DNA of 64,000 bases from IMG/VR virus record IMGVR_UViG_3300028048_000056, positions 64,001 to 128,000 of that record; one strand, 5' to 3'. The notes below the pieces were generated by a model. That model saw only the letters and a list, made by a program, of their open reading frames with translations. It did not search any database and was not told where the DNA came from. Source of the DNA: a virus (taxonomy: Duplodnaviria > Caudoviricetes). This document shows positions 72 to 25,787 of the stretch, one piece after another (position 1 is the first letter of the stretch; each line of letters opens with the position of its first letter). The position numbers and the translations under genes were made by a program.

Positions 72-2333
72 ATGGTAAATGTGAACAAGAACATAGTGCC
101 AGATAAGCAGGCAGATGTTCAGTCTACGACAAAGCAGCGTCGCCCTCGCAACACAGAGCTGAATAGTTCTAAGAGTGTAACTTCTGCTATCGCCGGCGTA
201 AGTCTGGCAAATATTCGCAAGCTCAACTGTTCAAGAGAATCTGTGCTTCAGGAACTTCATCGTTGGCTTAGCGAAGATGAAGCAAAAGACTATCTTGAAG
301 CTTTCGAGAACGAGACTGGTGCTCAGGTTGTGCGTATCGCATCTCCTGAAGAGGCTGCTATGGACGGTGATTTCTGGGCTGTCAAGGACGGTAAGGAGCA
401 GCTCTGGTATCGCACAGACGGTAAGTGGTACACGAAAGACGACCTGGACGGCTCCTGTGGTGAGACAGACGCAGATTCTAGCCTCAACTGCGAAGCTGGT
501 TCCGCCAAGGTTTCTGGCACGGTAACTATCTATAATGATTTTGCCGACCTCGATAATGATACCACAGAGCGTCTGCTCAGAAGCAGAATCGAGAAAGCCG
601 TTCCTGGTGCTAAGGTTGACTTCGAGAAGGTTAACGACACTGACGTTAAGGTAAACATCGACTGCCCTGATGCTGATGCAGAGAAGGCACGCCTGGCAGT
701 AGAGTCGTCAGATGTAACTAAGTCTGTCGATTGGGAATCTGCAACCGAGGAGCTCGACTCATCTAAAGACGCTGATAAGTCGACAGAAGGCACTAATCTG
801 AATTCTTCGGCTGAACCTGAAGGAGATACTGACGGCGGTGAGTCTGTAGCTGAAGGTGTCGATGCCTCTGACATCAAGATTACCACAGAGTCCGGTAACG
901 AAGTGTCGATGCAGGATATTAAGATTGTTCAGAACCCTGACACCAATGAACTGGCAATCTTTATTCCGGAAGATGAGGACGAGACTATCCCTGAAGGATT
1001 CAGCGTAATCGGTATGGTTGTACCTGACACGCTTGGTTCTGCACCTGCCATTGAGGGCGGTGACGTTTGCCCTGAGTGTGGACAGGACCCTTGCGTATGC
1101 GAAGAAGGCAGCGAAGACGAAGGAGAACTCGACTCGTCTAGAAAAAAGAGTGAGCTGAACTGCTCCAGCAGCTCTGGGCTTCTTGAAGTCGCTACTGAGT
1201 ATTATGAGGATGAGCACGATGCACTCGTAGACATTCTTCAGTCAGTTGATAACCTCGGCTATGGTGATGCTGTTTACGAACAGCTCATAAAGAATTACGG
1301 CTATGAAGGAACCGATGCTCAGCAGGCTGACGAGGCTCTAATCAAGATGGCAAGTGAAGACGCAGATGAGCATGACTTTCTGGTTAGCCTTATTCAGGCC
1401 ATCGAAGACCTCGGCTACGGTAAGCAGGTATACACAGACGTGCTCGGAATCGGCGGAGACATTAACAGCTCAGTAAACAGCTCACTCGGTGGTGGTGACG
1501 ACAGACAGGACGCTACAAGTCAGGTAACCGTACCTAAGAGCTTTCCTGATGATAAGGTTCATGACCTGTACAGATGGGTAGAAAACGAACTGCTGCACGA
1601 AGGCATCGACGTTGATGTTTACGGCGTAAGCAGACCGTCAGCCAGCACAATCAGCTTTGAATTCGAGGTAACCGGCAGAGACCCGTCCGAGGTTGATGCT
1701 ATCATCGAAGACCGTGTTAAAGAGTTCATCGCTAACGGTAACAACGCAATCCAGTATCCAGAAGGTGACCCTCGCCACGAGTTGAACAGTGATAAGCAGG
1801 AGAAAAATCTGAACTGTACTGTCGAGAACGCTCGCGTTGAGCCTACCGAGCAAGGCACCTGGGTTGTTAAGGCAGATACAGACCGATTTGGAAAGGATGC
1901 TATTCTGTATGAGCATTACTCTGAGGAAGGCGCGAACAAATATCTGGACCGCTTGAAGGCAGGCGGTGATGCTGTAGCTAACGGCTACGATGGTCACATT
2001 GACCCCAAGAAGGTCGACCTCGATTCTGGAGACGGCACGGCAGAAGCTAAGCTGGATAAGGCGTCCATTTCCAAAGCAATGGCTAAAGTCCTTCTTGAGG
2101 ATAAAGATACACCGCTTGTCTTTATCAAGCTGAAAGACGGAGCCCAAGCATACCTTCAGCCTGCAGGCTACGAAGACAATCAGCTGGTTGCAGACGGAAA
2201 CTTTGATGAGGCTAAAGTCTATGTCGCAATGTACGACAAGAACTACAAACCCATCATGGTGAACGACCGAGAGGATAACAAGATGAGTGGTGCTGAGGTC
2301 GTCGACTACATCAAGCGTAATCTCGGTATGTAA
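72..2333 (+). CDS. Large acidic modular protein; putative prohead scaffold/internal-head polyprotein
   Basis: 753 aa, D/E-rich, RBS GAAAGGAG; about 12 [LIV]-[ND]-[SC] motifs separating small domains; internal duplication (EHDALVDILQSVDNLGYG / EHDFLVSLIQAIEDLGYG); CPECGQDPCVC motif. Confidence 0.55.
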   Translation: MVNVNKNIVPDKQADVQSTTKQRRPRNTELNSSKSVTSAIAGVSLANIRKLNCSRESVLQELHRWLSEDEAKDYLEAFENETGAQVVRIASPEEAAMDGDFWAVKDGKEQLWYRTDGKWYTKDDLDGSCGETDADSSLNCEAGSAKVSGTVTIYNDFADLDNDTTERLLRSRIEKAVPGAKVDFEKVNDTDVKVNIDCPDADAEKARLAVESSDVTKSVDWESATEELDSSKDADKSTEGTNLNSSAEPEGDTDGGESVAEGVDASDIKITTESGNEVSMQDIKIVQNPDTNELAIFIPEDEDETIPEGFSVIGMVVPDTLGSAPAIEGGDVCPECGQDPCVCEEGSEDEGELDSSRKKSELNCSSSSGLLEVATEYYEDEHDALVDILQSVDNLGYGDAVYEQLIKNYGYEGTDAQQADEALIKMASEDADEHDFLVSLIQAIEDLGYGKQVYTDVLGIGGDINSSVNSSLGGGDDRQDATSQVTVPKSFPDDKVHDLYRWVENELLHEGIDVDVYGVSRPSASTISFEFEVTGRDPSEVDAIIEDRVKEFIANGNNAIQYPEGDPRHELNSDKQEKNLNCTVENARVEPTEQGTWVVKADTDRFGKDAILYEHYSEEGANKYLDRLKAGGDAVANGYDGHIDPKKVDLDSGDGTAEAKLDKASISKAMAKVLLEDKDTPLVFIKLKDGAQAYLQPAGYEDNQLVADGNFDEAKVYVAMYDKNYKPIMVNDREDNKMSGAEVVDYIKRNLGM

Positions 2334-2350
2334 CCAGGAGGTGGAGCTCT

Positions 2351-2680
2351 ATGCTACGTATTCCAATCAAGGGTGATAGGTCTCTGAACTCCACCTTCGA
2401 GAATCATGAACACTCTGAAAAGTCTAAAGAAAAGATTTCTGAAGGAACTCTTGAGTATCATGTTCAGAGGCTTGAAGACGGTGTGGTAAAGGAAACCTAC
2501 CACGATATGTGGGATGCTGTCGAGTGGGTTAAAAACCACAGAAAAACTCGTGCTAAAGACGAGAGCATCTATAAAAGAATTCAGTTCGCTGTCTACGGTT
2601 GCGACGGTACCAAGTCGGCATACGGTTACGAGTGGAAACTTGACCAGATACCTGGTAAGGACCTTAAGGAGGAAGACTGA
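2351..2680 (+). CDS. NUMOD3/NUMOD1-like DNA-binding protein without nuclease domain
   Basis: HEHSEKSKEKISEG (NUMOD3-like) and KSAYGYEWK (NUMOD1/HTH-like); RBS AGGAGGT; N-terminal SLNS motif. Confidence 0.55.
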   Translation: MLRIPIKGDRSLNSTFENHEHSEKSKEKISEGTLEYHVQRLEDGVVKETYHDMWDAVEWVKNHRKTRAKDESIYKRIQFAVYGCDGTKSAYGYEWKLDQIPGKDLKEED

Positions 2681-3375
2681 TGCAGCCGCTGATGCGGAAT
2701 TCACTTCAGAAGGATAAGATACGGACTAAACTAAGGTGGATGAGCCGAGAAAGGTTCTCCACCTTAACCCCGTATGAGAAATACCGTCGACATATTCTGA
2801 GTGTCAGAAATGAAGTATATCGGCAACGATTTCTTGGAATCACCGACCTAAGCCATCAATACGACATCTCTAAATGGGATTTCAGTAATGAGCCCGACAT
2901 TCCCTCTCGTCTGGGTTGTAAGAATGAGCATTGGAAGATGTACAAGGACGCTGATAAAGAAGCGATGCGGCGTATAACTAATCGACCGATAGGACGGTAT
3001 ACACCGTGGGGTAATCTAAGGCAGATATATCCGACATTCGAAGCAGCCGCAGAATGGGTGTTGTGGTATTTCCAAGACCACATATCTGATGTTCAAGGAG
3101 CACGCCCTCCTAAGAGTAAAGAAAGAATTGAGCGTAGAATACGACAATGTTGCTTACATTGGATGGACGTAGCGCCTGATGACCAGTTTGCTTTTGATTA
3201 TTTCTGGGAAGATGAAATATATAATATGGGTAACATACCGTCGGTAGCTCGCCCATATGATTTTGTCTGGAAGTACCTGACATTTGAGGAAGCAACCACT
3301 ATCAATTACGGTGACCTAGAGTCACTTGACTATACAGGAAGTAGGGGGCGAGATTGTGCTAAGACTAAACTGTAG
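2680..3375 (+). CDS. Hypothetical protein with NUMOD1-like DNA-binding segment
   Basis: RPIGRYTPWGNLRQIYPTFEAAAEWV...IRQCC...YDFVWKY; TGATG coupling to previous gene. Confidence 0.45.
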   Translation: MQPLMRNSLQKDKIRTKLRWMSRERFSTLTPYEKYRRHILSVRNEVYRQRFLGITDLSHQYDISKWDFSNEPDIPSRLGCKNEHWKMYKDADKEAMRRITNRPIGRYTPWGNLRQIYPTFEAAAEWVLWYFQDHISDVQGARPPKSKERIERRIRQCCLHWMDVAPDDQFAFDYFWEDEIYNMGNIPSVARPYDFVWKYLTFEEATTINYGDLESLDYTGSRGRDCAKTKL

Positions 3376-3715
3376 AGCTGTTTCACAAGCTAACCCATTC
3401 ACAGATAAGCACGAAGGTGCTGAGCGAGAAAAGCAAAAGATGTGGACAGGTTTCCAGTCGTCTAATATAGACGGCATGGCCTACAAAGTTGAAAAAGAAC
3501 AGCTGTGGGTTCGTTTCAAAGATGGGTCTGTATACACCTATTTCGACGTTCCTCTAAACATTGCTAAGGGTTTATACAAAGCTGGGTCGAAAGGAAAATA
3601 CTTCTGGAAAAAGATTCGTAATAATCCTAGATATCAGTATCAAAGATTATCTGCGTCTCTCCGACATCAGCTTGACAATTATGCAGGTCTCCGAGAAGAC
3701 CTAGGAGGTGAGTGA
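3356..3715 (+). CDS. KTSC domain protein
   Basis: SSNIDGMAY...LWVRFKDGSVYTYFDVP...AGSKGKYFWKKIR matches the KTSC pattern; GTG start after GGGGG RBS. Confidence 0.8.
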   Translation: MLRLNCRAVSQANPFTDKHEGAEREKQKMWTGFQSSNIDGMAYKVEKEQLWVRFKDGSVYTYFDVPLNIAKGLYKAGSKGKYFWKKIRNNPRYQYQRLSASLRHQLDNYAGLREDLGGE

Positions 3716-4124
3716 ATTGAGGAAATTCAGAATTAACTCTGGAGCGAGTGTCATGCCTAGCAAATTTGAAAATCCAGTAGATGAGGAATTTCTCAATGAT
3801 GTTAGCAATATCATTACGCTTGAAGACGGTACTTCACTTGATTTGAGCCGAGCTCGACTATTGTATAATCCGAATACACATCAGGTGCAGCTGACAGATG
3901 CCGAAGCCAACCCCAAGGACTTCGTTCAACTTGCTACGCTCACCATTACCAAAGATAAGCCTGAGGTGAACAACGATGAGTCATTCGAGGAACCGACCGA
4001 AGAGGGAACAGAAGAAGAAGAAGCTCTCGGCGAAGGCGCGGGAGAAGCAGTTGTGCGAGATACAGGAGACGTCGATGAAGAAATGCCAGCAGATGGAGAT
4101 GATTCCGGTGAGTTCTTCCAGTGA
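3708..4124 (+). CDS. Acidic hypothetical protein (putative internal head protein)
   Basis: RBS AGGAGG; N-terminal RINSG; core resembles a module of ORF 72..2333; acidic tail. Confidence 0.6.
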   Translation: MSELRKFRINSGASVMPSKFENPVDEEFLNDVSNIITLEDGTSLDLSRARLLYNPNTHQVQLTDAEANPKDFVQLATLTITKDKPEVNNDESFEEPTEEGTEEEEALGEGAGEAVVRDTGDVDEEMPADGDDSGEFFQ

Positions 4125-4216: not shown

Positions 4217-4228
4217 ATATCACGAACT

Positions 4229-4316: not shown

Positions 4317-5519
4317 ATGCTATTCAAGGTCAGTCAGATATCACCAACGGTAGAGTTGGTATTCGCCGATGCTGAGCGATTTATTAACGTCTACCCGAGT
4401 TATCATCAGAATGGAGATTTAATCTACGCTAATGTCAATCCCGCAGCGTGGACTTTAGTAGGAACTGAATACAGATGGGAGACCACTTTCGTAGGTATCA
4501 CGGACATGACAGTACCGGTAATTCAGCTAATATACTCATACAATGCTACTCAAGCACAGAGACAGCAGCAATATGAAGCATTTAAGTCCATAACATCCGT
4601 CGAAACTGTTGAAAACAAGTTGTATCTACGAGCACCGATACGACCAAGCATTCCCTTCCGTATAAGATATCGTCGACTAGATAGGATGGATTTGGCAATA
4701 TCACTAAACCGATATCTAGGTATTGGTTTAGGTGTAGATGCACACCATGACAGTCTTGACGTATCTATGACCGCTATGAATCCGCTAACCGGTCAGTCAT
4801 TACCACTCACTACCACGCTTCAAGAAGCAGGTATAGGGTATGCAGGCGTACTGTCTTCTGATATGTTCGCTCGGATTCTTAAACTCGAGGACACCTACAA
4901 CAAGACGCTAACCCAACCTTATCGAATTGAGGGGTATGCTTCCGCCATTGCTGCTACGCCAGTCACAACCTACTACGCAGACATTGCAGCAGTTCAAGCT
5001 GTTGCCTCCGGTACCTGGTACAAGGAATGCGCACTATACAGCATAACAGATGCTGCTGACTTTGACACTGCGGTACACCTATTTTACCAACAGCAAGCTA
5101 CGTTGCTTGATTTAACACATATTTACACTGGCAACGTAGAATCCTTTAGTTATGCGTTAGCTGCTAACGTGTTGCTACAAGATATCAAAGGACTACAATT
5201 ACTTGATACACATAAAGCTACTGACATCAGCTATATGTTCGCTGATGATTCTGCCCTAGAATCTATCGATTTAGGTGTTTGTGACCTCAGGAACGTTCTG
5301 AATGTTGAAGGACTGTTCAAAGGCTGCACCGGGTTACAATACCTAGACGTTTGCAGTATAGACTTTACTAAGAAAGACGGTCAAGGAACTGCTCTGATTG
5401 AGCAGCCAGATGTGTTCACAGGAGTCCCTAATTCTTGTGAAATTTGGGTAGGCGGTCAAGCGCAACGAGATGCTATAATTGCTGTCTACCCGAATCTAAC
5501 CGGCATCACTTATAATTGA
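4317..5519 (+). CDS. Putative tail fibre/receptor-binding protein with BspA/DUF285-like LRR C-terminus
   Basis: DISYMFADDSALESIDL..NVEGLFKGCTGLQYLDV repeats; AGVLSS motif; N-terminal segment like Bacillota phage fibre domains. Confidence 0.55.
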   Translation: MLFKVSQISPTVELVFADAERFINVYPSYHQNGDLIYANVNPAAWTLVGTEYRWETTFVGITDMTVPVIQLIYSYNATQAQRQQQYEAFKSITSVETVENKLYLRAPIRPSIPFRIRYRRLDRMDLAISLNRYLGIGLGVDAHHDSLDVSMTAMNPLTGQSLPLTTTLQEAGIGYAGVLSSDMFARILKLEDTYNKTLTQPYRIEGYASAIAATPVTTYYADIAAVQAVASGTWYKECALYSITDAADFDTAVHLFYQQQATLLDLTHIYTGNVESFSYALAANVLLQDIKGLQLLDTHKATDISYMFADDSALESIDLGVCDLRNVLNVEGLFKGCTGLQYLDVCSIDFTKKDGQGTALIEQPDVFTGVPNSCEIWVGGQAQRDAIIAVYPNLTGITYN

Positions 5520-5550
5520 TTTATTTTCATATATTAGAATGAATAGTATA

Positions 5551-5582
5551 ACTTCGATGTCCACAGGTAAGTTTGTTATAAT
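5551..5582 (+). promoter_or_regulatory. ACTTCG-N20-TATAAT promoter
   Basis: Member of the 13-copy motif family; upstream of ORF 5615. Confidence 0.75.
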
Positions 5583-5614
5583 AAAGATATAATCAAAAGC
5601 GAGGTGCTAGCATA

Positions 5615-5791
5615 ATGAAAACAGTCGAGCAGCTGATTAAATCTTTTGAAGCAAAAGCCGCCATGGATAACTGCTCAATCGTGTCGCGAGATGACCTGCT
5701 AACAGCGGTTATGTATCTAAAAACTGTCACAGGTGATTCTGAGGTCAAGATTTCCCTCAACGCGGACCGAGTACCTTCTGAGTCTAAGTAA
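5615..5791 (+). CDS. Small hypothetical protein (58 aa, not in ORF track)
   Basis: RBS GAGGTG; MKTVEQLIKSFEAKAAMDNC...PSESK. Confidence 0.65.
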   Translation: MKTVEQLIKSFEAKAAMDNCSIVSRDDLLTAVMYLKTVTGDSEVKISLNADRVPSESK

Positions 5792-5829: not shown

Positions 5830-6252
5830 ATGAAGAATGTTCTGTATGGTGTTGATGAGAACACCGGTGCTCAAATCGATGTAACCGACATAGCTGTCTT
5901 GAATACAGTCGTAGCTCAGGTGTCTGATGCCGACGGTAATATCTACCCAGGTGACCAGGTTACATTGATAACTGACAGAGATTTTCTGTATGTGCCTGAC
6001 CTTGACCAGTCACTTTCGGTAGGTGACCAGATTTACCTTGACAACCAGTCACACCAACGCTGGGAGGTAAAGAAGGGATGGTACTCGGTTGACGACAACC
6101 CTGCGATATACGGATATTATCTATCCTCTATTCCTGCAGGCAAGACGAGAAGCTTATTCCTGAAAGACTTCAATTCGTTGACGTTCGTCACACCGAAAAC
6201 GCAATTTACGCTACCGACACTTCTAACGGAGGAGGACACAGACAATGGTTAA
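5830..6252 (+). CDS. Hypothetical protein
   Basis: RBS AAAGGAGG; 140 aa. Confidence 0.7.
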   Translation: MKNVLYGVDENTGAQIDVTDIAVLNTVVAQVSDADGNIYPGDQVTLITDRDFLYVPDLDQSLSVGDQIYLDNQSHQRWEVKKGWYSVDDNPAIYGYYLSSIPAGKTRSLFLKDFNSLTFVTPKTQFTLPTLLTEEDTDNG

Positions 6253-6484
6253 AATACCTGTAAACAGCTCGCTACACCCGCTTGCTGGTAAATCTGTAGC
6301 TGAAATGACCGCACTGCTCAATAATAGATACAGCAGCGTCCAGGAGATGAACGGTGCCTTTATCGTTTCCTCAGAGCAAGGTCCTATTCTTATCTCATGG
6401 GATGCTTCCCACAATGATTGGGTAGGTCAACCCTTCCAGTTTACCGGTGGTGCTCACTTCCTGAACGAAGACGGCACCTATTAA
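6245..6484 (+). CDS. Small hypothetical protein with N-terminal VNSS motif
   Basis: RBS GGAGG; MVKIPVNSSL. Confidence 0.65.
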   Translation: MVKIPVNSSLHPLAGKSVAEMTALLNNRYSSVQEMNGAFIVSSEQGPILISWDASHNDWVGQPFQFTGGAHFLNEDGTY

Positions 6485-7140: not shown

Positions 7141-7617
7141 ATGTTCGGAAAAATTCTAAAACTCGACTGCGCACGACAGAACCGAGTTAATCCGAATGGC
7201 TTCATGGAGCTATTTACACAAGAGTCTCAGACGAAAATTAAGCAGATGGACGCTAAGGCACCTGCTACGTTCAACAGCCTGAATTCAAGTGTATGCCCTA
7301 ACTTCCATGAGCCAGTACCCGTAAGACAAACTCTGTATCCTTCCTACTTCGACGCTACCATGCTTCGTACTCTGTATTACAACATCAGAATTCATGGTGA
7401 CCTTCCTAAGATGACTCGTGTATTTATCAACAAGGACCAGTCTGTTGTATTCGAGTTCGAGGATAGCGTAAAGAAGGAAACCGCAGAGAGGCTGCACGAG
7501 ATTCTTAAGAGTCTAGGACGTGTCGAGTTTACAAATCCGGAAATCTCTGGCAAGCGTGTGGGATTCGACATTGAAACAGATTCCTATACAGAACCGAGGA
7601 GTGATGTTGATGAGTAA
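7141..7617 (+). CDS. Hypothetical protein with LDC/LNSS motifs
   Basis: RBS AAAGGAGG before ATG 7141. Confidence 0.65.
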   Translation: MFGKILKLDCARQNRVNPNGFMELFTQESQTKIKQMDAKAPATFNSLNSSVCPNFHEPVPVRQTLYPSYFDATMLRTLYYNIRIHGDLPKMTRVFINKDQSVVFEFEDSVKKETAERLHEILKSLGRVEFTNPEISGKRVGFDIETDSYTEPRSDVDE

Positions 7618-9442: not shown

Positions 9443-9642
9443 TAACGAAACAGGAACGCAAGGAAGCTGAAAAGGCTGCTCGTTCGCTGTATCAAGATGT
9501 GCTGAAAGTGGAAGTAAAGGAGGACCCAGACAACGAGTCCTCCTTGCTCCTTACCATCACTCGTGGTCGAGTTATGCCAACTGTTCGCATAGATAGAAAA
9601 GCGGTGACTCCAAAACCAATATTTCCTAAGAAAGGGGAATGA
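9439..9642 (+). CDS. Small hypothetical protein
   Basis: ATGA overlaps at both ends; RBS GAGGTGG. Confidence 0.6.
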   Translation: MITKQERKEAEKAARSLYQDVLKVEVKEDPDNESSLLLTITRGRVMPTVRIDRKAVTPKPIFPKKGE

Positions 9643-11462: not shown

Positions 11463-11499
11463 TATAAAATCTAGAAATAAGGAAGGGAGGGGTCACACT

Positions 11500-11625
11500 G
11501 TGAAAATTACTCGAATTGAGCACATTAATCATGAGGAGCCGATAGCTGTTTATGATGTAATAGACGCTAAGCCAAATCATAATTTCTGTGTACGAGTTGG
11601 AAAACATCGTATAATTTCGCACAAT
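11500..11625 (+). mobile_element. Split intein C-fragment (IntC, 42 aa; not in ORF track)
   Basis: RBS AAGGAAGGGAGG, GTG start; MKITRIEHINHEEPIAVYDVIDAKPNHNFCVRVGKHRIISHN then +1 Cys. Confidence 0.9.
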
Positions 11626-13203: not shown

Positions 13204-14784
13204 TTGCCGTTATTCAAACGAAAGAAAAAGCAGGTTGTGCAGAACAATGCTATCCCTGCCAACCAGGTTAAGAAGCGAACTGATGTCTATGACATCGACT
13301 ATCGTGTACTTGCCGGTGCTCTAACCGACCTTGACCAGATTAAGCAGTCAACTACCGCTCTGAAGGACAGAGCAACCATGTACAATGCGATGACTCAGCT
13401 TAAATCTGATGCTATCATAGGTCCTGCAATCGAAATCTACGCTACCAATGCGACAGGCACGAATGCAGACGGAAATGTTATCTGGGCAATTCCGGTAAAT
13501 GACGATGAAGTCTCGATATTAGCTGCAAAAGCCGCTAATGAAAGAATGAGAGTTTGGAAGCTGAATTGGCGTGCTTACAGCCATATGATTGAGCTGGTTA
13601 CCTACTCTAATCTGTACCTAAAGACAACCGAGTTTGTAACTCCGAGAGCAAAGGAGCAGAATCAGGGTATACTTAGCTTAAATCAGCGAAATCCTAATGC
13701 TCATTGGGATGTTCGTACGGATGTTGCTATAAATCCTGCAATCATCTACGAGCTACGTCATGACGACGAACCTTCTGCTTTCTGTGTCGATTTCTCGCTT
13801 CAGGACAATATGACTGCGACCTCATATGACAGCTGGTGCAAAATCAAAGGAAGACCTTGGTCGGTTCAGTCCAGCGATTCTGTAATCCACATTGTCTACA
13901 ACCTGTCGTTGTATCCGTCTGAAATCGAGGTAGAAGACGCTGAAGGTGTCACTCCATACACCATATACCAAGGAGACCCACTGTTCGTAGATGCGTATGT
14001 ACCAGCACAGATTTTGTCTTTGCTGGAAGATGCTATTGTTGCCAACAGAGTTACCAAGTCTGCGTTAATCAGGATTCTTCAGCTTGAAGTAGGTGACTGC
14101 TCACCTGAAGAGGAGTTCAGATTACTCGACCAACTCAAAAGACAAATGGAGCATAAGCTAGCAGCAAATACCACTTCTGGTACAGCTTCTTCTTACGCTG
14201 ACCCAGGTCCGCTTGAAAAGATTGTCTACACGGTTACTCGTGATGGTAAGGGTGTAATCAATCTAGAAACTCTAGGCGGCGATGTAAACATCCGTGACAT
14301 TGTTGACCTTGACTGGTATAAGCAGAAGATTACATCGATTACAGACGTTTCTCCTGGTAATCTTGGTCAATCAACAGATGAAGAAGGAACTGGTGGAGCT
14401 ACTATCTTGACCCAGAACAACATCAGGTTGTATCGTAAGATAATCGGACTTCAGCATGCCTACAGCGAGGGTATTCGTGAAGCTATAAATACCTACTTCC
14501 GAAAGAATGACCTCGAGCAGTATTGCGACCGATTTGAGGTAAAGATGCAACCACCTGTAGGTCCTGAGGACGAAACCAAATCTGAATTGTCATCTAATGC
14601 GGTTAGCCGTGCTAACGACATTATCGCACTCCTTGAAAACCTTGGCGTTAAGGATTCTAAGATTAAGGTGAGGGCTGTCAAGGGACAACTTGACGTTATC
14701 GACCCTGATATCTATCGTATCTTGAACAAGGCAGACTTTACAGAAGCTACCGAGCCGCAGACAGAAGAAAATCCCTTCGTGTAA
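13204..14784 (+). CDS. Portal protein (T4 gp20-like)
   Basis: LSLLEDAIVANRVTKS..RI, INLETLGG, DIVDLDWY; position after terL; TTG start with AAAGGAGGT. Confidence 0.85.
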   Translation: MPLFKRKKKQVVQNNAIPANQVKKRTDVYDIDYRVLAGALTDLDQIKQSTTALKDRATMYNAMTQLKSDAIIGPAIEIYATNATGTNADGNVIWAIPVNDDEVSILAAKAANERMRVWKLNWRAYSHMIELVTYSNLYLKTTEFVTPRAKEQNQGILSLNQRNPNAHWDVRTDVAINPAIIYELRHDDEPSAFCVDFSLQDNMTATSYDSWCKIKGRPWSVQSSDSVIHIVYNLSLYPSEIEVEDAEGVTPYTIYQGDPLFVDAYVPAQILSLLEDAIVANRVTKSALIRILQLEVGDCSPEEEFRLLDQLKRQMEHKLAANTTSGTASSYADPGPLEKIVYTVTRDGKGVINLETLGGDVNIRDIVDLDWYKQKITSITDVSPGNLGQSTDEEGTGGATILTQNNIRLYRKIIGLQHAYSEGIREAINTYFRKNDLEQYCDRFEVKMQPPVGPEDETKSELSSNAVSRANDIIALLENLGVKDSKIKVRAVKGQLDVIDPDIYRILNKADFTEATEPQTEENPFV

Positions 14785-14872
14785 CGAATAGCAAGGGCAA
14801 TCCTGACAACACTCTATATAATAGAAGGAATAGACGACAAGCGGGATTGTCTATTTAAGCGAGGTGAGTAAG

Positions 14873-15475
14873 ATGGCAACAGAAATGACGCAGGATAGTA
14901 AAACCGGTAGGTTTATCGTAGCAGGCGACTTTCTCGATATCGGTATTCCGAATCAAGATGGTTTAACCTTTTCTCGAGAGACTATCGAATGGCTAATGAA
15001 CGACCCGACATTCAAGGATTGTCTGGCTCGTCATGTATATCCTGCATACATTGAGCATCCGTCAGACAACACACCAGGCTTCCGCGGAACTGAAGCAGGT
15101 TTCCTAATCGACTGCCACATCGAGGGAGACAAGCTGAAAGGTGCAATCGAGCTTCTCGATACCACTAAGGAAGGTCAGTACATCAGAGACTTGTACAGAC
15201 ACGAGATTAAACCGGGTGTCAGCATTCGAGCTAACGGATGTACCGACACTGGCGGATATCCTGGCAAAACAACAGGTCCGATTGACTTCTTCGGATTTGA
15301 CTTTGTGGCGCAACCAGCGTTCAAATATGCGGTTCCTATTCCGCTCGCAGCTTCAAGGCGAAACCTCATTCAGAACACTTTAAGGCTTTCGGACACCAGC
15401 CGTCAACTGGCAGCTCTGAGAAAGAGTGCTCTGTCTGAGTTGTTATACAATTCGCATTTCAAAAACTTTAGCTAA
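14873..15475 (+). CDS. Prohead protease (T4 gp21-like)
   Basis: YIEHP, GVSIRANG, FDFVAQPAF catalytic motifs; lies between portal and capsid. Confidence 0.85.
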   Translation: MATEMTQDSKTGRFIVAGDFLDIGIPNQDGLTFSRETIEWLMNDPTFKDCLARHVYPAYIEHPSDNTPGFRGTEAGFLIDCHIEGDKLKGAIELLDTTKEGQYIRDLYRHEIKPGVSIRANGCTDTGGYPGKTTGPIDFFGFDFVAQPAFKYAVPIPLAASRRNLIQNTLRLSDTSRQLAALRKSALSELLYNSHFKNFS

Positions 15476-15489: not shown

Positions 15490-16860
15490 ATGCTTAAGCC
15501 TTACACAAATGCAGGCAAGTCTGGCATTCAGAGCCTGAACTCCAGCCGTGCCGCAAAAGGACTGTCACAGTATGATGCTATCGGGCTTTCTAAGGCTCAG
15601 AAGATTCTCAATAGCGCATACGCACTGCAGAAGAGAGCTTTGAACTCAAGCCTTCTTCCTACTTCTATCATTCCATCTGCAACTCAGCCAGGTGACGTTC
15701 TCCAGAAGACCACATACATGAATGTTCTTCGTGCAACACTCGTGGATTGGCTCATTCCTGAGTTCTGTACAATGCAGCCTATGGCTTCTCGTCACACCTC
15801 AATTCCTTACACTCTCTTCCACTTCGGTGAAGATAAGGGTACTGTAAAGGCTGGTCAGGTGTTCGCAAGCCCCTTCGAGCTCGCAAGAGGTGAAGAGAAC
15901 TACTCTGGCAGTGATGTCAACAACGAGCCTCTCACAGACCTCTACCTCCGTGCTCCTGTTATTCCTACCACTGTTCGTATCGTTCCTCAGAGCGGCTCTA
16001 CAATCTTTGATGATGGCGAGGGCAAGCTCCAGACTCTGAACGGTGCTACTGTTACAGATGTCGGCACTATTGATTACGCAACTGGCGTTATCACAGGCGT
16101 TACTGCAGCAGCTACAACTCTCGCTTCTTACAGAGTTGACAACATTTCAGCTTCTGCTAATACACCTCCTATCTACAGTGAGCTCGCTTGGCTCGACCTT
16201 GTTGCAGAGGACAACACTCTCGCAGCGCGTTGGTCACAGGCAGCTGCTTACGATATGGAACAGCAGTATGGTCTTGACGGTCCTAAGATGCTCGAGGAGC
16301 AGGCTACATCTGTAATCGTAAATGAGCTCAATACCAAGGTTGCTCATGATATGTGGGCTAACGCAGGAGCAGGTCAGCCTGTTGTATGGAGCGCTACACC
16401 CCCTATCGGACAAGGCCAGGCAGGTGACCTTGCACACGACAACTCTTTCATCAGAGCTATCAACGCAGGTTCACAGAGAATCTACGACGCAACAGGTCGT
16501 ATTCGTCCTAACTTCATGCTCGTTGGTTCCAGCGTCATGACTGTTATCCAGGGTATGACTCAGTTCACTCCTGCTAACACTCAGAAGACAACTGGTTCTT
16601 ACTATGCAGGTACTCTCGGCGATAAGAAGGTATACTGCTTCAGAGGTGGTATTCCTCATGACCAGTACGTTCTCGGTCACGTTTCCAGCAACGATGTCGA
16701 GCCTTCTTATGTATTCGGCACATATATGCCTGTTACAGCAACAGCTGCTCTTATGGATGCTACATTCACAGGTCAGCAGGGCTTCGCAACATCGAACGCT
16801 CTGAAGATGGTGAATCCGAAGGCATTCATCCGTGGCGTTGTTACTAACCTGGTATACTAA
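15490..16860 (+). CDS. Major capsid protein (T4 gp23-like)
   Basis: CTMQPM, LAARWSQAAAYDMEQQYGLD, VFGTYMPV, QQGFATS; highly biased codons; three LNS motifs in the N-terminal 53 aa. Confidence 0.9.
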   Translation: MLKPYTNAGKSGIQSLNSSRAAKGLSQYDAIGLSKAQKILNSAYALQKRALNSSLLPTSIIPSATQPGDVLQKTTYMNVLRATLVDWLIPEFCTMQPMASRHTSIPYTLFHFGEDKGTVKAGQVFASPFELARGEENYSGSDVNNEPLTDLYLRAPVIPTTVRIVPQSGSTIFDDGEGKLQTLNGATVTDVGTIDYATGVITGVTAAATTLASYRVDNISASANTPPIYSELAWLDLVAEDNTLAARWSQAAAYDMEQQYGLDGPKMLEEQATSVIVNELNTKVAHDMWANAGAGQPVVWSATPPIGQGQAGDLAHDNSFIRAINAGSQRIYDATGRIRPNFMLVGSSVMTVIQGMTQFTPANTQKTTGSYYAGTLGDKKVYCFRGGIPHDQYVLGHVSSNDVEPSYVFGTYMPVTATAALMDATFTGQQGFATSNALKMVNPKAFIRGVVTNLVY

Positions 16861-18153: not shown

Positions 18154-18465
18154 ATGGCTAAGGATGCTAAAAGAAAGCTTCTCAAGCTCGACAGCTCCAA
18201 GAAGAAAGAAAACCTGAATTCTTCTAAGGAATTCGAGGGTACCGTATATTACAGCCTTGAGGATGTCGAGATTATCACTCAGGCAATTCTCGCAGAGCTC
18301 TCGTCTGACCCGTCTATCGGCGTTACAATCACTCCTTCAGACACAGGTGTTGTTCTCAACTGCGTGCCTGAGAACGGTGACGAGTATACCGTTGATGTTG
18401 ACTTGAATACCGAGACTCTCGCTGAGGACGCAGCTGCTGAAGGCGGCGAGCCTGCAGTAGAGTAA
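18154..18465 (+). CDS. Small acidic protein with LDSS/LNSS leader
   Basis: RBS AGGAGGT; MAKDAKRKLLKLDSSKKKENLNSS. Confidence 0.65.
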   Translation: MAKDAKRKLLKLDSSKKKENLNSSKEFEGTVYYSLEDVEIITQAILAELSSDPSIGVTITPSDTGVVLNCVPENGDEYTVDVDLNTETLAEDAAAEGGEPAVE

Positions 18466-19358: not shown

Positions 19359-19950
19359 TACCGCAATATATGAATATCTGAAAGCTAATTTCGGTGACAA
19401 TCTAGGTATCGTACCAGTAAAAGATTACTGGAACGTAGCAGCAATGCACAAAGAGACCAGATTGCAGTTGCCTGCCATAGTGTTGTTCAGAACGAACGTC
19501 ACACCTGAAAGGCAGCTTCAATCATGGCCGATAGCTCGTAGGGGCAGAATGGACCGAATTCAAGAGCACAAGAAAATCATGGAACGAGCCATTCCAATTC
19601 AAGCTGATTATACAATCACCTTGTTGGCAACAACGCAAGATGACATAGATGAGCTGACGAGTGAAGTTACGTTCCTTTTCGTGATGAAGCCCCGTCTCGA
19701 GATAAAATTACCCTATGGCTCTGCTCGAACAATTCACGGGCAGATTATGATAAATGGTGATTTCCAGCCCAGTTCTGGAACTGACCGATTCTCTGAAACA
19801 GGTATTCTATATCAACAGATAATTCCGATTCGTGTGTTAGGAGCTAACATCATCGACATCAGGAAGAAAAATCTACGTTATCTGGATTGGCAAATAGATT
19901 CTAACCTGTATAATACAGTAAAGGAGGAGATTGAAGATGCCAAGAATTAA
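19342..19950 (+). CDS. Tail completion/terminator protein (gp15-like)
   Basis: LQLPAIVL, IPIQADYTITLLATTQDDIDEL; precedes sheath. Confidence 0.6.
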   Translation: MIRLYDTAIYEYLKANFGDNLGIVPVKDYWNVAAMHKETRLQLPAIVLFRTNVTPERQLQSWPIARRGRMDRIQEHKKIMERAIPIQADYTITLLATTQDDIDELTSEVTFLFVMKPRLEIKLPYGSARTIHGQIMINGDFQPSSGTDRFSETGILYQQIIPIRVLGANIIDIRKKNLRYLDWQIDSNLYNTVKEEIEDAKN

Positions 19951-22843
19951 CATCTATGAGCATTCGGAAACCTACAGCTTCCAGACTAAGAATAATGCTT
20001 ATGCCACGGTTGCTTTTCCGATTGCCGCAATCTGGGGTCCTACCTTCGTAGAGGGTGACGAGGACTCAAACCCGGACTGGGTTCACTTCAGCTCCGGTTT
20101 CAGAGGCACTACTGATTTCATGACAACATTCAGAGGTGCCAACAACTATCTTGGTGCTCGTGAGAAGTCTTTCGACTATGCTCTGAAGCTTCTGGCAGCT
20201 GGTTACGATATTCTCGTCAAGAGAGTCGACGGCTTAGGCAACAAGAGTAGCAATGGTCTGTTCGTAATTCCCGCAGGCGTTGCTGCACCTGTCCCGGCTT
20301 CTGCGTATCTGTACCTTAAGCCTTCGGAACAGCCATACTCTGCGAACTATGATAAGTTCTTATACAGAGTGCTTATGCCACACGCTGTAAATCACAGCAT
20401 TGCTTGGGATTACAGCTATGCAGGTGAAGAAGACCAGCAGCTCACAGCCCAAATCTATGGTCAGAAGTATGACGCAGGGACCAACAAGTGGTCTAAGTAT
20501 CAGTCGAATTCACCTATTCTCAAGGTAACTGCAAAGTCAGCTAATACCGACACAGACAAACCTCTCGTGGTTGTAATTGGTAAGCCCAACATTATCACCA
20601 CACAGCAGAAGCCTACTCGCAATGCTCAGATGGTTCTGGACGGCGGTAGTTATCTCACGTCCAATACCGGTAAGCAGGTAACAGTACAGGGTTCTGTTCC
20701 AATTTCTGTTTTCTCTTCGGACGGCATTCTTTTAGAGCGTCGTAATGTTACAATGACCGAAACGACAGAAGCTGTTGCTTCATCTGCTTCTACCGGTCCT
20801 GACCGTACTGTTACGGTCTCTGTTGACAGCGTACTCGTTCCTGAGTTCACCTATATTCAGCTGGAAGAAATTCCTGCACTGCTGTCACTAAAGGTTGCAT
20901 ACGAAGAGACAATCAGCAATCTGTTCTCCAGTAATGAGGCTGATGTAAAGCTCGGCATGATTACCGTTCGCCTAGGTAACGCATGGACACAGCCAGCAGC
21001 TATGTCTTGTTCAGCAACAGCAAGCGGTTCCGGTGTAACAGCCGCAACTGTAGACGAGCTGGCGTTCAATAGTGCCGTTCAGGGTGTATCTGGTACATAC
21101 GAGTTCAAGTATGACGGTACCAAGTGGACACTCGGTTCAGGTGCGTCTGCGAAGGTTGTCACACCTTCTCAGTATGGTATTACCTATACAGGTACACCTG
21201 CAAACAATGACACAATCACAGTTACCTACGCCTTCGGCACTCCTGCTGATGTAGCAGGTCTATCTGCTGGTGCTGCTGCAGTAATCGATGCATCTACTCA
21301 GGAAGTTCGTCTTCAGGCGAAATATCCCGGCACCTTCGGTAATAACCTTAAGGTTAGAATCAAGTGCGGCTTAAACGGCGAAGGCTTCAAAATCGGTACT
21401 GTCGAGGTATTCGATAACAACGGTTACAGCGGTCATCCGAATGAGATTGTTCCTACCGACCAGCTGCTCGAGCTTGTGTCTGTCGCATTTGACGAAGACG
21501 CAGCGTCGGACAACCGTCCTCTCATCACAGAAGCTACTTTCAGTAATCTGGATACTCCTCGATTCATCGTAACCGGTACTGGTGCTGACGTGTCGCCTTC
21601 TGCGTATCCTACAGGCATGAAGGTTGTGTCACTTCTTTACGGTACTGACTACGCTACTGAGATTGGCAGTGGTGCTGACGCACAGCCTATCACCAAAGAT
21701 GCTATCCTCGAGCTCGTTGCAGAACGTTTCCCAACCGACAGTCAGTTCTACAACTATATTAGCATCATCGCAAGCGACTATGAGCAGAATGACCAGGATG
21801 CTCTGATTCGTCTGTACAACCAGCAGATTATGTACAGCAGATTCTATAAGGCTGTCGGCGAGTTGACTGACCCTATCTGCTACGATTGGGACGCACTCGT
21901 TCAGGGCATTGCAGATGACCAGTATGTACCTAAGTCCTTCTTGGAGGCAAACAGGGACACTTTCTTCATGGAGTACGAAGTATCTACACTCGTTACTCGT
22001 ATGATTGAGGTTGCTGCTAACTCCAAGTGTGGAGCTGCGCTCATCGGTACTCCGTTCGGTATGCCAAGAGGTATTCAGACAGGTACAGGTGCGTCTGCTG
22101 TTAAGACGGGTGCTCTCAAGTATAAAGATTCCGTTTCCCAGGTTGTCGGTCCGGTTTACTCTACATTTGGTGAGGTTGTAGGTCCTTGGTGCAAGACCAC
22201 ACTGGCACTTGCCGGCGCAAACAGCTGGATTGCACCTGAAATCGGTCACCTTCTGCTCATCATCAACTCCAAGGGCATCGGTGGTCAGAATAAGTGGTGG
22301 ATGGTTCCTGCCGGCATGCTCGGCACTGGCATCGTACACACACCTGAGTACAAAATCAAGAGACATTATCTTGACCTCATTCAGGACCACGACGAAGGCG
22401 TTTGCTTGAACCCGCTTATGGAAGTTCCTGGTAAGGGCTTCACTTGCTTCGGCAACAGCACACTCTGGGACAAGCCGCTGGGTTCCTACAACGCACTGCA
22501 GAACTTGTCTACCAGATTCCTTACTAACAGGGTTAAGCAGCGTATCTGGGATACTGCACTTCAGATTCTGTTCCGCTACAATAATGAGGATGCTTACTCA
22601 CACTTCTACGCAGGACTCAGCCCTCTTCTCGATGAGATGAGAGCTGTCGGCGCACTCACAGGTAACGAATACAACCCATGGGGCTATCGCATCATCATGA
22701 ACCCCGACATCGTTAACCTTGACCGCATCAATGCCAATACGGTTATTGGTAAGGTTGAGCTCGCTGTTACCGGCGTAATCGACACCGTCGACGTCGACCT
22801 CTTCCTGTTACCTCCTACAGGATTCCAGGAGACGTACGACTAA
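19937..22843 (+). CDS. Contractile tail sheath protein with large insertions
   Basis: MPRINIYE, AIWGP, AKYPGTFGNNLKV, WMVPAG, LNPL...FGNSTL, C-terminal sheath domain; 970 aa. Confidence 0.9.
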   Translation: MPRINIYEHSETYSFQTKNNAYATVAFPIAAIWGPTFVEGDEDSNPDWVHFSSGFRGTTDFMTTFRGANNYLGAREKSFDYALKLLAAGYDILVKRVDGLGNKSSNGLFVIPAGVAAPVPASAYLYLKPSEQPYSANYDKFLYRVLMPHAVNHSIAWDYSYAGEEDQQLTAQIYGQKYDAGTNKWSKYQSNSPILKVTAKSANTDTDKPLVVVIGKPNIITTQQKPTRNAQMVLDGGSYLTSNTGKQVTVQGSVPISVFSSDGILLERRNVTMTETTEAVASSASTGPDRTVTVSVDSVLVPEFTYIQLEEIPALLSLKVAYEETISNLFSSNEADVKLGMITVRLGNAWTQPAAMSCSATASGSGVTAATVDELAFNSAVQGVSGTYEFKYDGTKWTLGSGASAKVVTPSQYGITYTGTPANNDTITVTYAFGTPADVAGLSAGAAAVIDASTQEVRLQAKYPGTFGNNLKVRIKCGLNGEGFKIGTVEVFDNNGYSGHPNEIVPTDQLLELVSVAFDEDAASDNRPLITEATFSNLDTPRFIVTGTGADVSPSAYPTGMKVVSLLYGTDYATEIGSGADAQPITKDAILELVAERFPTDSQFYNYISIIASDYEQNDQDALIRLYNQQIMYSRFYKAVGELTDPICYDWDALVQGIADDQYVPKSFLEANRDTFFMEYEVSTLVTRMIEVAANSKCGAALIGTPFGMPRGIQTGTGASAVKTGALKYKDSVSQVVGPVYSTFGEVVGPWCKTTLALAGANSWIAPEIGHLLLIINSKGIGGQNKWWMVPAGMLGTGIVHTPEYKIKRHYLDLIQDHDEGVCLNPLMEVPGKGFTCFGNSTLWDKPLGSYNALQNLSTRFLTNRVKQRIWDTALQILFRYNNEDAYSHFYAGLSPLLDEMRAVGALTGNEYNPWGYRIIMNPDIVNLDRINANTVIGKVELAVTGVIDTVDVDLFLLPPTGFQETYD

Positions 22844-22932
22844 TACCTATATACTGATGTGCGTCTGTATATTAGAGCGTGGAGCGTTCACAGACGCACA
22901 TCAATAATTCTATTAAAGAAAGGTTTGATATC

Positions 22933-23208
22933 ATGAATAAGACAGAGTTTGTCTCAGCTCTCAAGGAGAAGACTGGATTTACTAACGAGCAGGCTTACAA
23001 GGCAATCGACGGCGTATTCGACGTCATCACAGACGCACTCGAAAAGGGTGATAGCGTCACAGTTCAGTCTTTCGGTACATTCGAGGTTCGCAACCGTGCA
23101 GCTCGTAAGGGCATCAATCCTCAGACTAAGAAGCCTATCGACATCAGTGCGAGCAAGGCTCCTGCGTTCAAGGTCAGCTACAAGCTGAAAGAGCGTATCA
23201 ACAAGTAA
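22933..23208 (+). CDS. hup: HU family DNA-binding protein
   Basis: MNKTEFV...FGTFEVRNRAARKGINPQT...PAFK. Confidence 0.95.
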   Translation: MNKTEFVSALKEKTGFTNEQAYKAIDGVFDVITDALEKGDSVTVQSFGTFEVRNRAARKGINPQTKKPIDISASKAPAFKVSYKLKERINK

Positions 23209-23865: not shown

Positions 23866-23879
23866 GGAGGTAGAAAAGC

Positions 23880-25787
23880 ATGAATGTATTCATTTCAGAA
23901 ATGCTCAAGACAATGGGTATTGCAGCAGACAGCCAGAAGCTCAACTGCTGCAAAGCCCAGGGCACAATTATCGACGACTCAAAGGTAGGATTCAGCTTAA
24001 CGCTGCCTGATGGCACTACTGTCGAGGTATACACACCAAAGGAAGACAGCTGTGCGACAGAAGAAGGATTTGCGTACATCCCCGAATGTGACGCAGAAAG
24101 CCCTGATATGTGTGCTGAAGACCTCGGTACCTGGGTAGGAGACTGCCTCGACTGCTCCAGACGTATCGATGCCTATTATGAGTCTATTCGAGGCAGAAGC
24201 ACAGAACTCAATTCGGCTCTTGAGCCAGACACAGCACGTCGTATCAAAGACGTGTTCAGAGCTGCACAGTCAGCAGTTGACCTGCCGCCTGGATTCCGCT
24301 ACACCGCATTCCGTGAGAACAAAGATGCAGACCTCATCTTGTCTACATTGATGTATACATCACAGAAGGTCGGTACTCAGTGGGTAGCTAAATCTTCACT
24401 TGCTCTCGATGTAGGTGCAGGTGCTGATGAGAGTGGCAGTGATGACTGGACATTCGAGCCAAACTACAATCCTGATTCTGAAGCTCATCTCATTTACCAC
24501 AGAGCAGGTCGATTCATCGATGTTGAGCGCGGCGCATACGGTGATACCGTTACCGGTGATACAGCTGAGAAGAGGGACAAGCAGGCAGCCTATTGGCTTG
24601 CCGGACTGTTGTCTGACATGGTCGACAGTATGCTTCAGAATCCGCCAGCTCGTTGCTACGAGTTCTTCCTTGCAGATGGCATTGCCGAGCTCAAGAAGTC
24701 AGACCTTGACCGTATGAGCACACCTGGTATTATGCGTCTGGTAACCAAGGGTTATATCAAGGCAGAGGACGTTCTAAAGGCAAAGCCGGCACTCGCAAAA
24801 GACCTGGTTCAGAAGAAGCTGATTACACCTGAAATCGTGGCACGTCGTGTTCCCGAGCGTCTCCTCTGGCTTGTTCAGGCTGGTTACATCAGCCCTGACT
24901 ATGCAGTCAAGGTTGACCCCACTATCAAGGATAAGCTGGTTAAGAAGGGCCTGTACACGATTGCTGATAACCTTCCTGATGACCCTTCTGCAATCTTGGA
25001 AGGTGTCAAGGCTGGTGAAATTCCGCCTACAGATGCTTACAGAAAGAATCCTAAGCTACTTCAGCCTATGGTCGAACAGAAACTCATCACACCGCAGGAA
25101 GCCTACAAGCTCGATGCGTCTATTGTTACATGGTTATTGCTCAATCACTTTATCGGCAGAGAAGAAGCCACGAAAGTAAAGCCCGACATTCAGAAGTACA
25201 TCGCAAGAAAGTATAAGGATGTCAACTGGGAAGAGCTGGACGCTTCTTGTAGCGACGGCGAAACCTTGAATTCAGGCGACGGTGGGCAGTTCAAAGACAA
25301 GCTAAAGAAGCTCAGAGAAGCATTTGCTAAACGCCAGAAGTCTGCCAAGAAGGCAGAGGAGGGTATCGACGCTGCTAATGAGGCAATCCTCAACAAGACA
25401 GCTAAGCTCCGCGAAGCAGCAGGTTTGAACAGCTCGATGGGCTTCAACAGCAATATGATAGGCGACGGCGATAACGTAGGCGAGCCACTTTCAAGCTCCG
25501 AAACACCTCATGTATTCGAGGAAGGAGACTTCAGCCAGTATGCACCTGGCTATGAGCCGCTTGCTACTACAACCGCTGAAGGACCTGGATTCATTGCTGA
25601 GGTTATGTTACCGGAAGACAATTTTGACGGGATTGTCGTACCCGGTGATTCTGCAGATATCGCAAAGGAAACTCTTACTCAGATGCTTCTGGCAAACGAC
25701 GGAACCTTCATCGACTGGAAGCCTGTAGATGACATTCAGACATTCAAGACTGAGAATGCTGACAAGAACATTCTCGTTCTTAACTAA
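23880..25787 (+). CDS. Modular protein with ~23-aa helical repeats and multiple LNS/LDC motifs
   Basis: Repeats LVTKGYIKAEDV/LVQKKLITPE/LVQAGYISPD; motifs KLNCC, LDCS, ELNSA, LDAS, TLNSG, GLNSS. Confidence 0.6.
   Translation: MNVFISEMLKTMGIAADSQKLNCCKAQGTIIDDSKVGFSLTLPDGTTVEVYTPKEDSCATEEGFAYIPECDAESPDMCAEDLGTWVGDCLDCSRRIDAYYESIRGRSTELNSALEPDTARRIKDVFRAAQSAVDLPPGFRYTAFRENKDADLILSTLMYTSQKVGTQWVAKSSLALDVGAGADESGSDDWTFEPNYNPDSEAHLIYHRAGRFIDVERGAYGDTVTGDTAEKRDKQAAYWLAGLLSDMVDSMLQNPPARCYEFFLADGIAELKKSDLDRMSTPGIMRLVTKGYIKAEDVLKAKPALAKDLVQKKLITPEIVARRVPERLLWLVQAGYISPDYAVKVDPTIKDKLVKKGLYTIADNLPDDPSAILEGVKAGEIPPTDAYRKNPKLLQPMVEQKLITPQEAYKLDASIVTWLLLNHFIGREEATKVKPDIQKYIARKYKDVNWEELDASCSDGETLNSGDGGQFKDKLKKLREAFAKRQKSAKKAEEGIDAANEAILNKTAKLREAAGLNSSMGFNSNMIGDGDNVGEPLSSSETPHVFEEGDFSQYAPGYEPLATTTAEGPGFIAEVMLPEDNFDGIVVPGDSADIAKETLTQMLLANDGTFIDWKPVDDIQTFKTENADKNILVLN

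Follow-up and report, generated by a model that had tools for sequence, protein, structure and literature searches.

Many otherwise unrelated late proteins of one uncultured tailed phage carry the same short motif, L-[ND]-[SC]-S, close to their N-terminus, which raises the question of what reads this motif. The stretch of DNA that encodes them, called the window in the following, comprises 64,000 nucleotides (bases 64001-128000) of the 162,085-bp IMG/VR virus record IMGVR_UViG_3300028048_000056 (~93% complete), and its late block occupies window positions 72-25787 of the + strand. From sequence comparison we consider it likely that the motif is a cleavage code of the prohead protease of this phage, with a small residue at P1, the position in front of the cut, and that it marks eleven substrates: nine proteins with N-terminal leaders, the major capsid protein (MCP) and the protease itself. 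Neither a cultured relative nor a published description of this system was found. In all motifs ↓ stands for the scissile bond, which is a predicted one for this phage.

The motif is enriched in late proteins

Motif counts were determined for 33 proteins of the + strand (the late set, 8142 amino acids (aa)) and for the remaining window genes (11183 aa), and were compared with 300 within-protein shuffles that keep the composition. All patterns were in strong excess in the late set. [LIV][ND][SC] was observed 39 times versus 16.0 ± 3.9 expected, L[ND][SC] 27 times versus 6.4 ± 2.6, L[ND][SC]S 14 times versus 0.44, and LNSS 8 times versus 0.14; for all four patterns the observed counts were reached by 0 of 300 shuffles. 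The other window genes stayed close to expectation (25 versus 20.9, 10 versus 8.5, 1 versus 0.54 and 0 versus 0.16, in the same order). The original prediction, made from the sequence of the window, had drawn attention to the motif near the N-termini of a series of late proteins. All of these occurrences are in place, and the excess over shuffled sequences that its reading entails was found in the late set and not in the other window genes.

A scan of 4123 tripeptides without any preset pattern returned NSS, LNC and LNS as the top three in the late set (p 6e-8 to 3e-7), and the same scan on the other 191 proteins of the genome yielded nothing comparable. Across the entire genome (162 kb), clusters of the motif occur only in open reading frame (ORF) 72, the MCP leader, ORF18154, ORF23880 and six small ORFs (2351, 3356, 3708, 6245, 7141 and 9128), all six of which are located between ORF72 and the terminase gene. 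Orthologues also have Ala at the third place of the motif and Ile or Val at the first. All codons are used for the Leu, the Asn/Asp and the Ser/Cys of the motif. Since the motif codons vary, the signal acts at the protein level, and a DNA-level word was ruled out by the free use of synonymous codons.

Late proteins that need to stay whole, among them the mature MCP and the protease domain, contain fewer motifs than expected: 3 were observed versus 8.7 expected, and only 12 of 500 shuffles were as low. FVNSD in ORF6497 as well as VNSS and LDSQ in the tail tube protein ORF23317 look like chance occurrences.

Two sites in the leader of the major capsid protein are invariant

15490..16860, + strand: MCP, gp23 family, 456 aa (Pfam Gp23, E 6.6e-23)
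15535-15543, + strand: conserved site SLNS↓SR in the MCP leader (residues 1-53)
15640-15648, + strand: conserved site ALNS↓SL in the same leader

The closest cultured MCPs, those of Bacillus phage HSE3, Listeria phage LIS04 and one Streptococcus phage, are ~30% identical. Conservation was read from 51 cluster representatives of 70-97% identity. L16, N17, S19 and R20 of the first site and L51, N52 and S54 of the second are invariant (51/51), and the third place of both sites (16-19 and 51-54) is occupied by Ser or Ala only. Residues 6-14, which flank the first site, are 16-50% conserved. The three LNS motifs that the original prediction had listed in this region are all present; these two proved invariant, whereas the one at residues 40-42 (ILNSA) is not conserved, S42 being found in 6% of the 51 relatives. 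The mature MCP is predicted to start with Ser54. The peptide from this N-terminus would be SLLPTSIIPSATQPGDVLQK, and the peptide across the uncut site would be ALNSSLLPTSIIPSATQPGDVLQK.

Glu is absent from residues 1-53 of the MCP, and the candidate substrates show no excess of [LI]xE (26 observed versus 24.8 expected), so that a Glu-specific enzyme would be without a target there. On these two grounds a retained Glu specificity was ruled out. Where the leader reads LNS↓S or LNA↓S in this lineage, distantly related MCPs show VNE↓A, ANE↓S or LNE↓A, and the MCPs P0052 and P0053 (36% identical) have INAS↓R and IRS↓G.

Outside the window, 60 residues of an open frame of ~1140 aa (record 140274-140465, locus L002) match MCP residues 158-217 at 40% identity (E 6e-7). 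This may be a capsid insertion-domain-like module that is reused in a large structural protein.

The protease is a gp21 family member with the motif at its predicted self-cut site

14864..15475, + strand: prohead protease, 203 aa, gp21 (S77) family (phrog_207 head maturation protease, E 1.1e-10)
15344-15352, + strand: predicted self-cut site L161-A-A163↓S164, followed by a 40-aa C-terminal helix

A profile built from the query together with 55 homologues matched T4 gp21 (PDB 5JBL) with E 2.4e-30. The query alone scores under the Pfam Peptidase_S77 threshold, which the homologues P0064 and P0073 pass, and a tblastn search with the protease against 50,697 phage records gave no match. H65, S120, R122 and D146 are invariant in 56 aligned homologues. 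By alignment, the catalytic triad consists of His65, Ser120 and Asp146, and His65 and Ser120 correspond to His85 and Ser140, the catalytic residues of T4 gp21, which cuts I/L-x-E (PMC12991175). The AlphaFold2 (AF2) model of the protease had a predicted local distance difference test (pLDDT) value of 83.8, and the best three Foldseek matches were chains of 5JBL (E 8e-7, probability 1.0, template modelling (TM) score 0.67 by target). The proteases of Epstein-Barr virus, herpes simplex virus (HSV) 2, human cytomegalovirus (HCMV), Kaposi's sarcoma-associated herpesvirus and pseudorabies virus (PrV) followed with probability 0.94-0.99 and TM 0.31-0.43. By profile and predicted fold, the enzyme is a member of the T4 gp21 family.

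The original prediction had also seen LAAS behind the catalytic domain of the protease, and this sequence is kept in orthologues as L-[AV]-A-S-R-R, immediately after the domain. In the alignment to 5JBL, T4 has I-T-E↓S after the catalytic domain, Glu-class homologues (see below) have x-x-E↓S, and this phage has L-A-A↓S. In the enzymes of T4, phiKZ, 201phi2-1 and SPN3US the third motif residue is P1, and a C-terminal self-cut takes place (PMC5694885, PMC12991175). We assign P1 to the third residue of the motif because in T4-type enzymes the cut follows the third residue of hydrophobic-x-Glu, and because the E↓S self-sites and the xNE↓S/A of distant MCPs align with LAA↓S and LNS↓S of this lineage.

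Short leaders of small late proteins end in the motif

2351..2680, + strand: 109-aa protein, 14-aa leader ending SLNS↓T (site kept in orthologues of 82-94% identity)
3356..3715, + strand: KTSC-domain protein (Pfam KTSC, E 1.5e-18), leader MLRLNC↓R
3708..4124, + strand: 138-aa acidic protein, 11-aa leader ending RINS↓G (orthologues KINS↓G and KVNA↓S, 52% identity)
6245..6484, + strand: 79-aa protein, 8-aa leader ending PVNS↓S
7141..7617, + strand: 158-aa protein with KLDC↓A and SLNS↓S, both in the first 49 residues
9128..9442 (alternative start 9146), + strand: 104-aa helical protein, hypervariable leader ending SLNS↓S
18154..18465, + strand: 103-aa protein with N-terminal KLDS↓S and NLNS↓S (both kept in ten orthologues)

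Together with ORF72 and ORF23880, these proteins have leaders of 6-32 residues that end in the motif. Eight orthologues of ORF7141, the most distant of them 51% identical, retain both sites amid flanks that vary and contain gaps. In ORF6245 orthologues (38-47% identity) an LNS, LNC or INA is still present close to the N-terminus, and those of ORF9128 have KLNS↓S, KLNC↓A or KLNS↓A at the site. Position 3356 is the probable start of ORF3356, whose orthologues open with MLRLNCR. Three of the leaders and the MCP open with M-[LV]-[KR]; a wider consensus was not established. Searches of Pfam and PHROGs gave no family match for ORF72 or for ORFs 2351, 3708, 6245, 9128, 18154 and 23880.

The motif marks the joints of two large proteins

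72..2333, + strand: ORF72, 753 aa, a 32-aa leader and then ~seven modules of 70-110 aa, with 12-13 motif sites between (P1 residues 32, 53, 140, 230, 245, 355, 364, 466, 470, 573, 582 and 652)
23880..25787, + strand: ORF23880, 635 aa, leader 1-23 (KLNC↓C) and further P1 residues at 92, 112, 455, 465 and 518

Genomes with 93-99% identical MCPs have ORF72 orthologues of 60-73% identity. Entire modules have been gained, lost or duplicated, and the motif is kept at every joint. All 76 homologues of ORF72 in a large protein collection bear 5-14 L[ND][SCA] motifs, in total 710 versus 77 expected. Internal homology breakpoints of ORF72 lie within 6 aa of a site (≤6 aa) in 54% of cases, versus 19 ± 4% for random positions (maximum 32% in 500 draws). 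By these comparisons, ORF72 is a bead-on-a-string polyprotein with swappable modules and with its joints at the motif.

The module of residues 471-573 (window 1482-1790) is doubled in some relatives (L017-L019, ~5400-5700); the doubled modules are diverged tandem copies with a motif site on each side. According to its ESM Atlas model, the module looks like small ferredoxin-like domains, with TM 0.67 to a 102-aa protein across 86 residues, a match of low confidence. With regard to a function of ORF72, the ESM Atlas gave low-TM matches only, and the Atlas model is poor.

In ORF23880 the sites flank a conserved 343-aa core and a 53-aa helical piece, and they are kept across the ORF23880 family. 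One relative contains an inserted module that resembles the last module of ORF72. The AF2 model of residues 113-465 (pLDDT 85) comprises an alpha/beta domain and a helical-hairpin repeat. For the core, Foldseek searches of PDB and BFVD returned nothing at E ≤ 0.001, a wide VIA-align search gave Z ≤ 6.4, which is inside the stated noise range of this tool, and the ESM Atlas had no usable match for ORF23880.

Active-site residues divide the protease family into two classes

To compare specificities we used the 150 nearest cluster representatives of the protease, mostly protease-scaffold fusions of ~500 residues with the scaffold as a tail. Glu-class enzymes have N-G-R-x-Y, E-x-D-H-P and, after the nucleophile, S-S-R. 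Their tails contain [LIVM]xE[SAG] 588 times versus 183 expected (z 33) and no excess of xAS. In the tails of the small class, characterised by S-[IV]-R, [LIVM]xAS occurs 172 times versus 26 expected (z 29) and xE[SAG] is depleted. The MCP leaders encoded beside 25 small-class fusions in IMG/VR contain [LIVM]x[AS][ASG] 53 times versus 19 expected and [LIVM]xE not once. [IL]-A-A↓S stands right after the catalytic domain in all three small-class branches.

Four alignment columns divide the two classes with no exceptions (numbering of the protease of this phage):

Leu34: Arg in 95/100 of the Glu class; Leu, Met or Ile in the small class
Phe36: Tyr in 100/100 of the Glu class; Ile, Leu or Phe in the small class
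Tyr62: Glu, His, Gln or Asn in the Glu class; Phe or Tyr in the small class
Ile121: Ser, Ala or Thr in the Glu class; Val or Ile in the small class, with Glu in P0196

All 37 small-class enzymes, including that of this phage, are non-polar at three of the four columns, and one divergent member, P0196, has Glu at the fourth. T4 gp21 has Glu-class residues at 4/4 columns, and this phage has small-class residues at 4/4. The four residues are thus candidate specificity residues. The original prediction of a gp21-like protease with non-Glu specificity gains support in silico from these data, with Ser, Cys and Ala as the P1 set instead of Ser and Cys alone; its estimate of about ten marked proteins agrees with the nine leader-tagged proteins, the MCP and the protease counted here.

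A quick tree grouped the enzyme with P0196 and the large small-class clade (Shimodaira-Hasegawa-like approximate likelihood ratio test 86, with a long-branch warning). In a careful tree without P0196, the enzyme had a branch length of 3.8 changes per site and an unsupported position. A single small-P1 clade was not rejected by the approximately unbiased test (p 0.22).

P0196 is a 557-aa protease-scaffold fusion and a small-class enzyme. E-H-P precedes its catalytic His, which is also the case in this phage; AIAA↓SK follows the domain, and the tail contains RINSS, IRSS and IRAS. Its locus was looked for in IMG/VR and none was found. P0196, P0052 and P0053 may represent lineages that link the code of this phage to the I-x-A↓S clade.

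Proposed mechanism and alternative explanations

According to our proposal, the motif [L>I,V]-[N,D]-[S,C,A]↓[S>A,G,T,C] would be recognised and cut by the protease encoded at 14864-15475, whose altered pocket would accept Leu at P3, Asn or Asp at P2, and Ser, Cys or Ala at P1 in place of Glu. By analogy with T4, the protease would be built into the prohead. The 53-residue MCP leader would be taken off in two pieces, and short N-terminal leaders would be trimmed from seven small proteins. ORF72 would be cut into ~7 pieces (a 32-residue leader and ~seven pieces of 70-110 residues) and ORF23880 into ~5, and with a cut at LAA↓S the protease would detach itself from the C-terminal helix that anchors it. 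That the substrates are packaged as capsid cargo, and what the released pieces may do, we infer from T4, whose gp21 is active within the assembled core.

Several points speak against this proposal. Cleavage itself is inferred, and the position of the scissile bond after the third motif residue is assigned by homology only. We could identify no scaffold protein for this phage. The nearest cultured relatives and the small-class clade have protease and scaffold in one polypeptide, and here a 40-residue helix is all that follows the predicted self-cut site. Apart from the motif, the leaders revealed no targeting sequence in common. As each class is a group of related enzymes, the covariation between residues and motifs amounts to two or three evolutionary events at most, and the trees are compatible with one switch to a small P1 or with two.

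A different protease, from the host or from the phage itself, might cut the motif. As a precedent, the host protease Prp removes the leaders of capsid and scaffold proteins of certain staphylococcal phages. We regard this as very unlikely, considering that the class of the motif follows the active-site residues of the phage protease across the family, that the motif is present in the protease at the very position where T4-type enzymes cut themselves, and that it is confined to proteins of the late module.

It is highly improbable that the motif stays uncut and functions as a binding or sorting tag (for scaffold, portal or chaperone) or as a modification site (glycosylation, phosphorylation). 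Leaders might target a protein without being cut, and some of the sites fit N-x-S/T (NSS, NCS, NST). However, Asp freely replaces Asn, P1' is often not followed by S/T (NCE, NSA, NSG), and Ala replaces Ser/Cys in relatives, by which a hydroxyl or thiol acceptor is lost; the N-glycosylation sequon was ruled out for these reasons. The layout is that of sites for a T4-type protease, namely at leader ends, at module joints, at the end of the MCP leader and after the protease domain, and the depletion in structural proteins fits an avoidance of cutting. That the excess is a functionless by-product of Ser/Asn-rich linkers or of recent duplication is extremely improbable, for although ORF72 has low-complexity acidic, Ser-rich linkers and a duplicated module, composition-keeping shuffles never match the counts, the order L-N-S-S is fixed and carried by unrelated proteins, and the motif is invariant amid hypervariable neighbours, with no costless loss in 76 ORF72 homologues or 51 MCPs.

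Gene context

13204..14784, + strand: portal protein, T4 gp20 family (Pfam Portal_T4, E 8e-26), in which a motif scan found no site
17425, + strand: head-tail adaptor, in the late block
19931-22843, + strand: tail sheath, in the late block
22879-23208, + strand: HU-like DNA-binding protein (phrog_379, E 2e-32)
23317, + strand: tail tube, in the late block

The gene for the HU-like protein has an odd position between the tail sheath and tail tube genes. The large terminase gene (window 9639-12931) is interrupted; in close relatives it is a single ORF of 650 aa. Terminase residues 1-217 continue into ~97 aa of an intein N-terminal splicing domain, with the junction between QQIF and CLVGST. A GIY-YIG gene in two ORFs (10576-10947 and 11103-11462) lies downstream of this N-terminal part. 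The terminase restarts at 11627, with in-frame stops just upstream and without an intein C-terminal block. An Rfam intron was looked for in the interruption and none was found. The layout is the same in relative L012 (78% MCP identity), and two other relatives have insertions at a different site. A decayed intein, an unrecognised intron and a split gene are candidates for the interruption.

Implications

This lineage and a larger uncultured clade point to a second specificity class within the gp21 enzyme family, one whose cutting rule agrees with that of herpesvirus proteases, which are distant relatives. The code provides a listing, from sequence alone, of proteins that are probably loaded into the capsid, and module exchange at the cut sites of ORF72 would be a simple route to new packaged proteins. 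New in this study are the four class-discriminating residues, the statistic for ORF72 breakpoints at sites, the depletion in non-substrates and the substrate list of this genome.

Host immune sensors can use cleavage by the head protease as a tripwire, as in the case of T4 gp21 and a CD-NTase of the cyclic oligonucleotide-based antiphage signalling system (CBASS) with a Glu-type decoy (PMC12991175). As a speculation, a change in the cutting rule could bear on immune evasion. In a more far-reaching reading, which we consider rather unlikely, the change from Glu to a small P1 was an adaptive re-keying of the head protease by hydrophobic residues replacing a polar S1 pocket that is made up of the Arg and Tyr of N-G-R-x-Y, the Glu ahead of the catalytic His and the Ser behind the nucleophile, possibly repeatedly, and the code is a plug-and-play joint for effector modules of ~100 residues in capsid-delivered polyproteins (ORF72, ORF23880). 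The advantage of such re-keying would be that the protease evades host immune sensors bearing Glu-type decoy loops. Some of the delivered modules might protect the unusually modified DNA of this phage on entry, like T4 IPI*.

Comparison with known systems

The prohead core of T4 (gp21 S77/5JBL, gp23 propeptide, gp22 scaffold, internal proteins IPI-III and Alt with capsid-targeting leaders) is similar to the predicted system. Protease family and fold are the same, and so is the gene order portal-protease-MCP. Both systems have an MCP leader of ~50-65 residues and a three-residue motif with a hydrophobic P3, short motif-ended leaders on unrelated proteins, multi-site proteins to be broken up, and a self-cut site C-terminal to the catalytic domain, which is predicted in our case. 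Every T4-type or giant-phage head protease studied cuts after Glu (PMC5694885), a trait that belongs to the characterised enzymes and does not define the gp21 fold. While P1 is Glu in T4, it would be Ser, Cys or Ala here, as inferred in silico, and Leu34, Phe36, Tyr62 and Ile121 take the places of the Arg and Tyr of N-G-R-x-Y, the Glu three residues before His and the Ser after the nucleophile of T4 gp21. Unlike in T4, there is no scaffold gene between protease and MCP, and the main substrate is a 753-aa multi-module polyprotein instead of single small internal proteins.

Herpesvirus proteases have the consensus (V/L/I)-x-A↓S, and the M-sites of HSV and HCMV are V-N-A↓S, which is near to the L-N-A↓S of the lineage studied here. 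For the PrV protease, the sites YLQA-T and VQA-S have been described (PMC4498786). The motif proposed here, L-[ND]-[SCA]↓S with the self-site L-A-A↓S, resembles that of herpesvirus assemblin (MEROPS S21) in having a small P1 followed by Ser, and a hydrophobic P3. The folds are related, to a degree that agrees with the known kinship within the superfamily but not with membership among the assemblins, and assemblin is likewise freed from a C-terminal capsid-binding part by self-cleavage. In contrast to the Ser-His-His triad of assemblin, the third triad member is an invariant Asp146 (F-D-x-V motif), as in T4-type enzymes, and fold and sequence are far nearer to gp21 than to assemblin (TM 0.67 versus about 0.35). 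Furthermore, there is no fused scaffold here, and many substrates stand against essentially one. The specificity in common is most simply explained by convergence or as an old, variable trait of the superfamily, and not by closer kinship.

In the giant phages, phiKZ gp175 and SPN3US gp245 (MEROPS S80) also serve many head proteins with one protease, and propeptides contain several copies of the motif (PMC5694885, PMC10052503). Abundant packaged proteins of these phages reach the host (PMC5694885, PMC10052503). Unlike the enzyme of this phage, the phiKZ and SPN3US proteases cut after Glu (S/A/G-x-E, A-x-E), and their substrates are separate products with long propeptides, whereas strings of swappable modules are found here.

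The uncultured clade of I-A-A↓S protease-scaffold fusions belongs to the small-P1 class like this phage, with hydrophobic residues at the same four positions. It shares [IL]-A-A↓S after the catalytic domain and MCP leaders without Glu-type sites. Its members have ~450-560 aa including a coiled-coil scaffold, and their preferred sites are [IV]-x-A↓[SAG] with a free P2. In comparison, the enzyme described here is a standalone protein of 203 aa and would prefer Leu at P3, Asn or Asp at P2, and Ser or Cys at P1.

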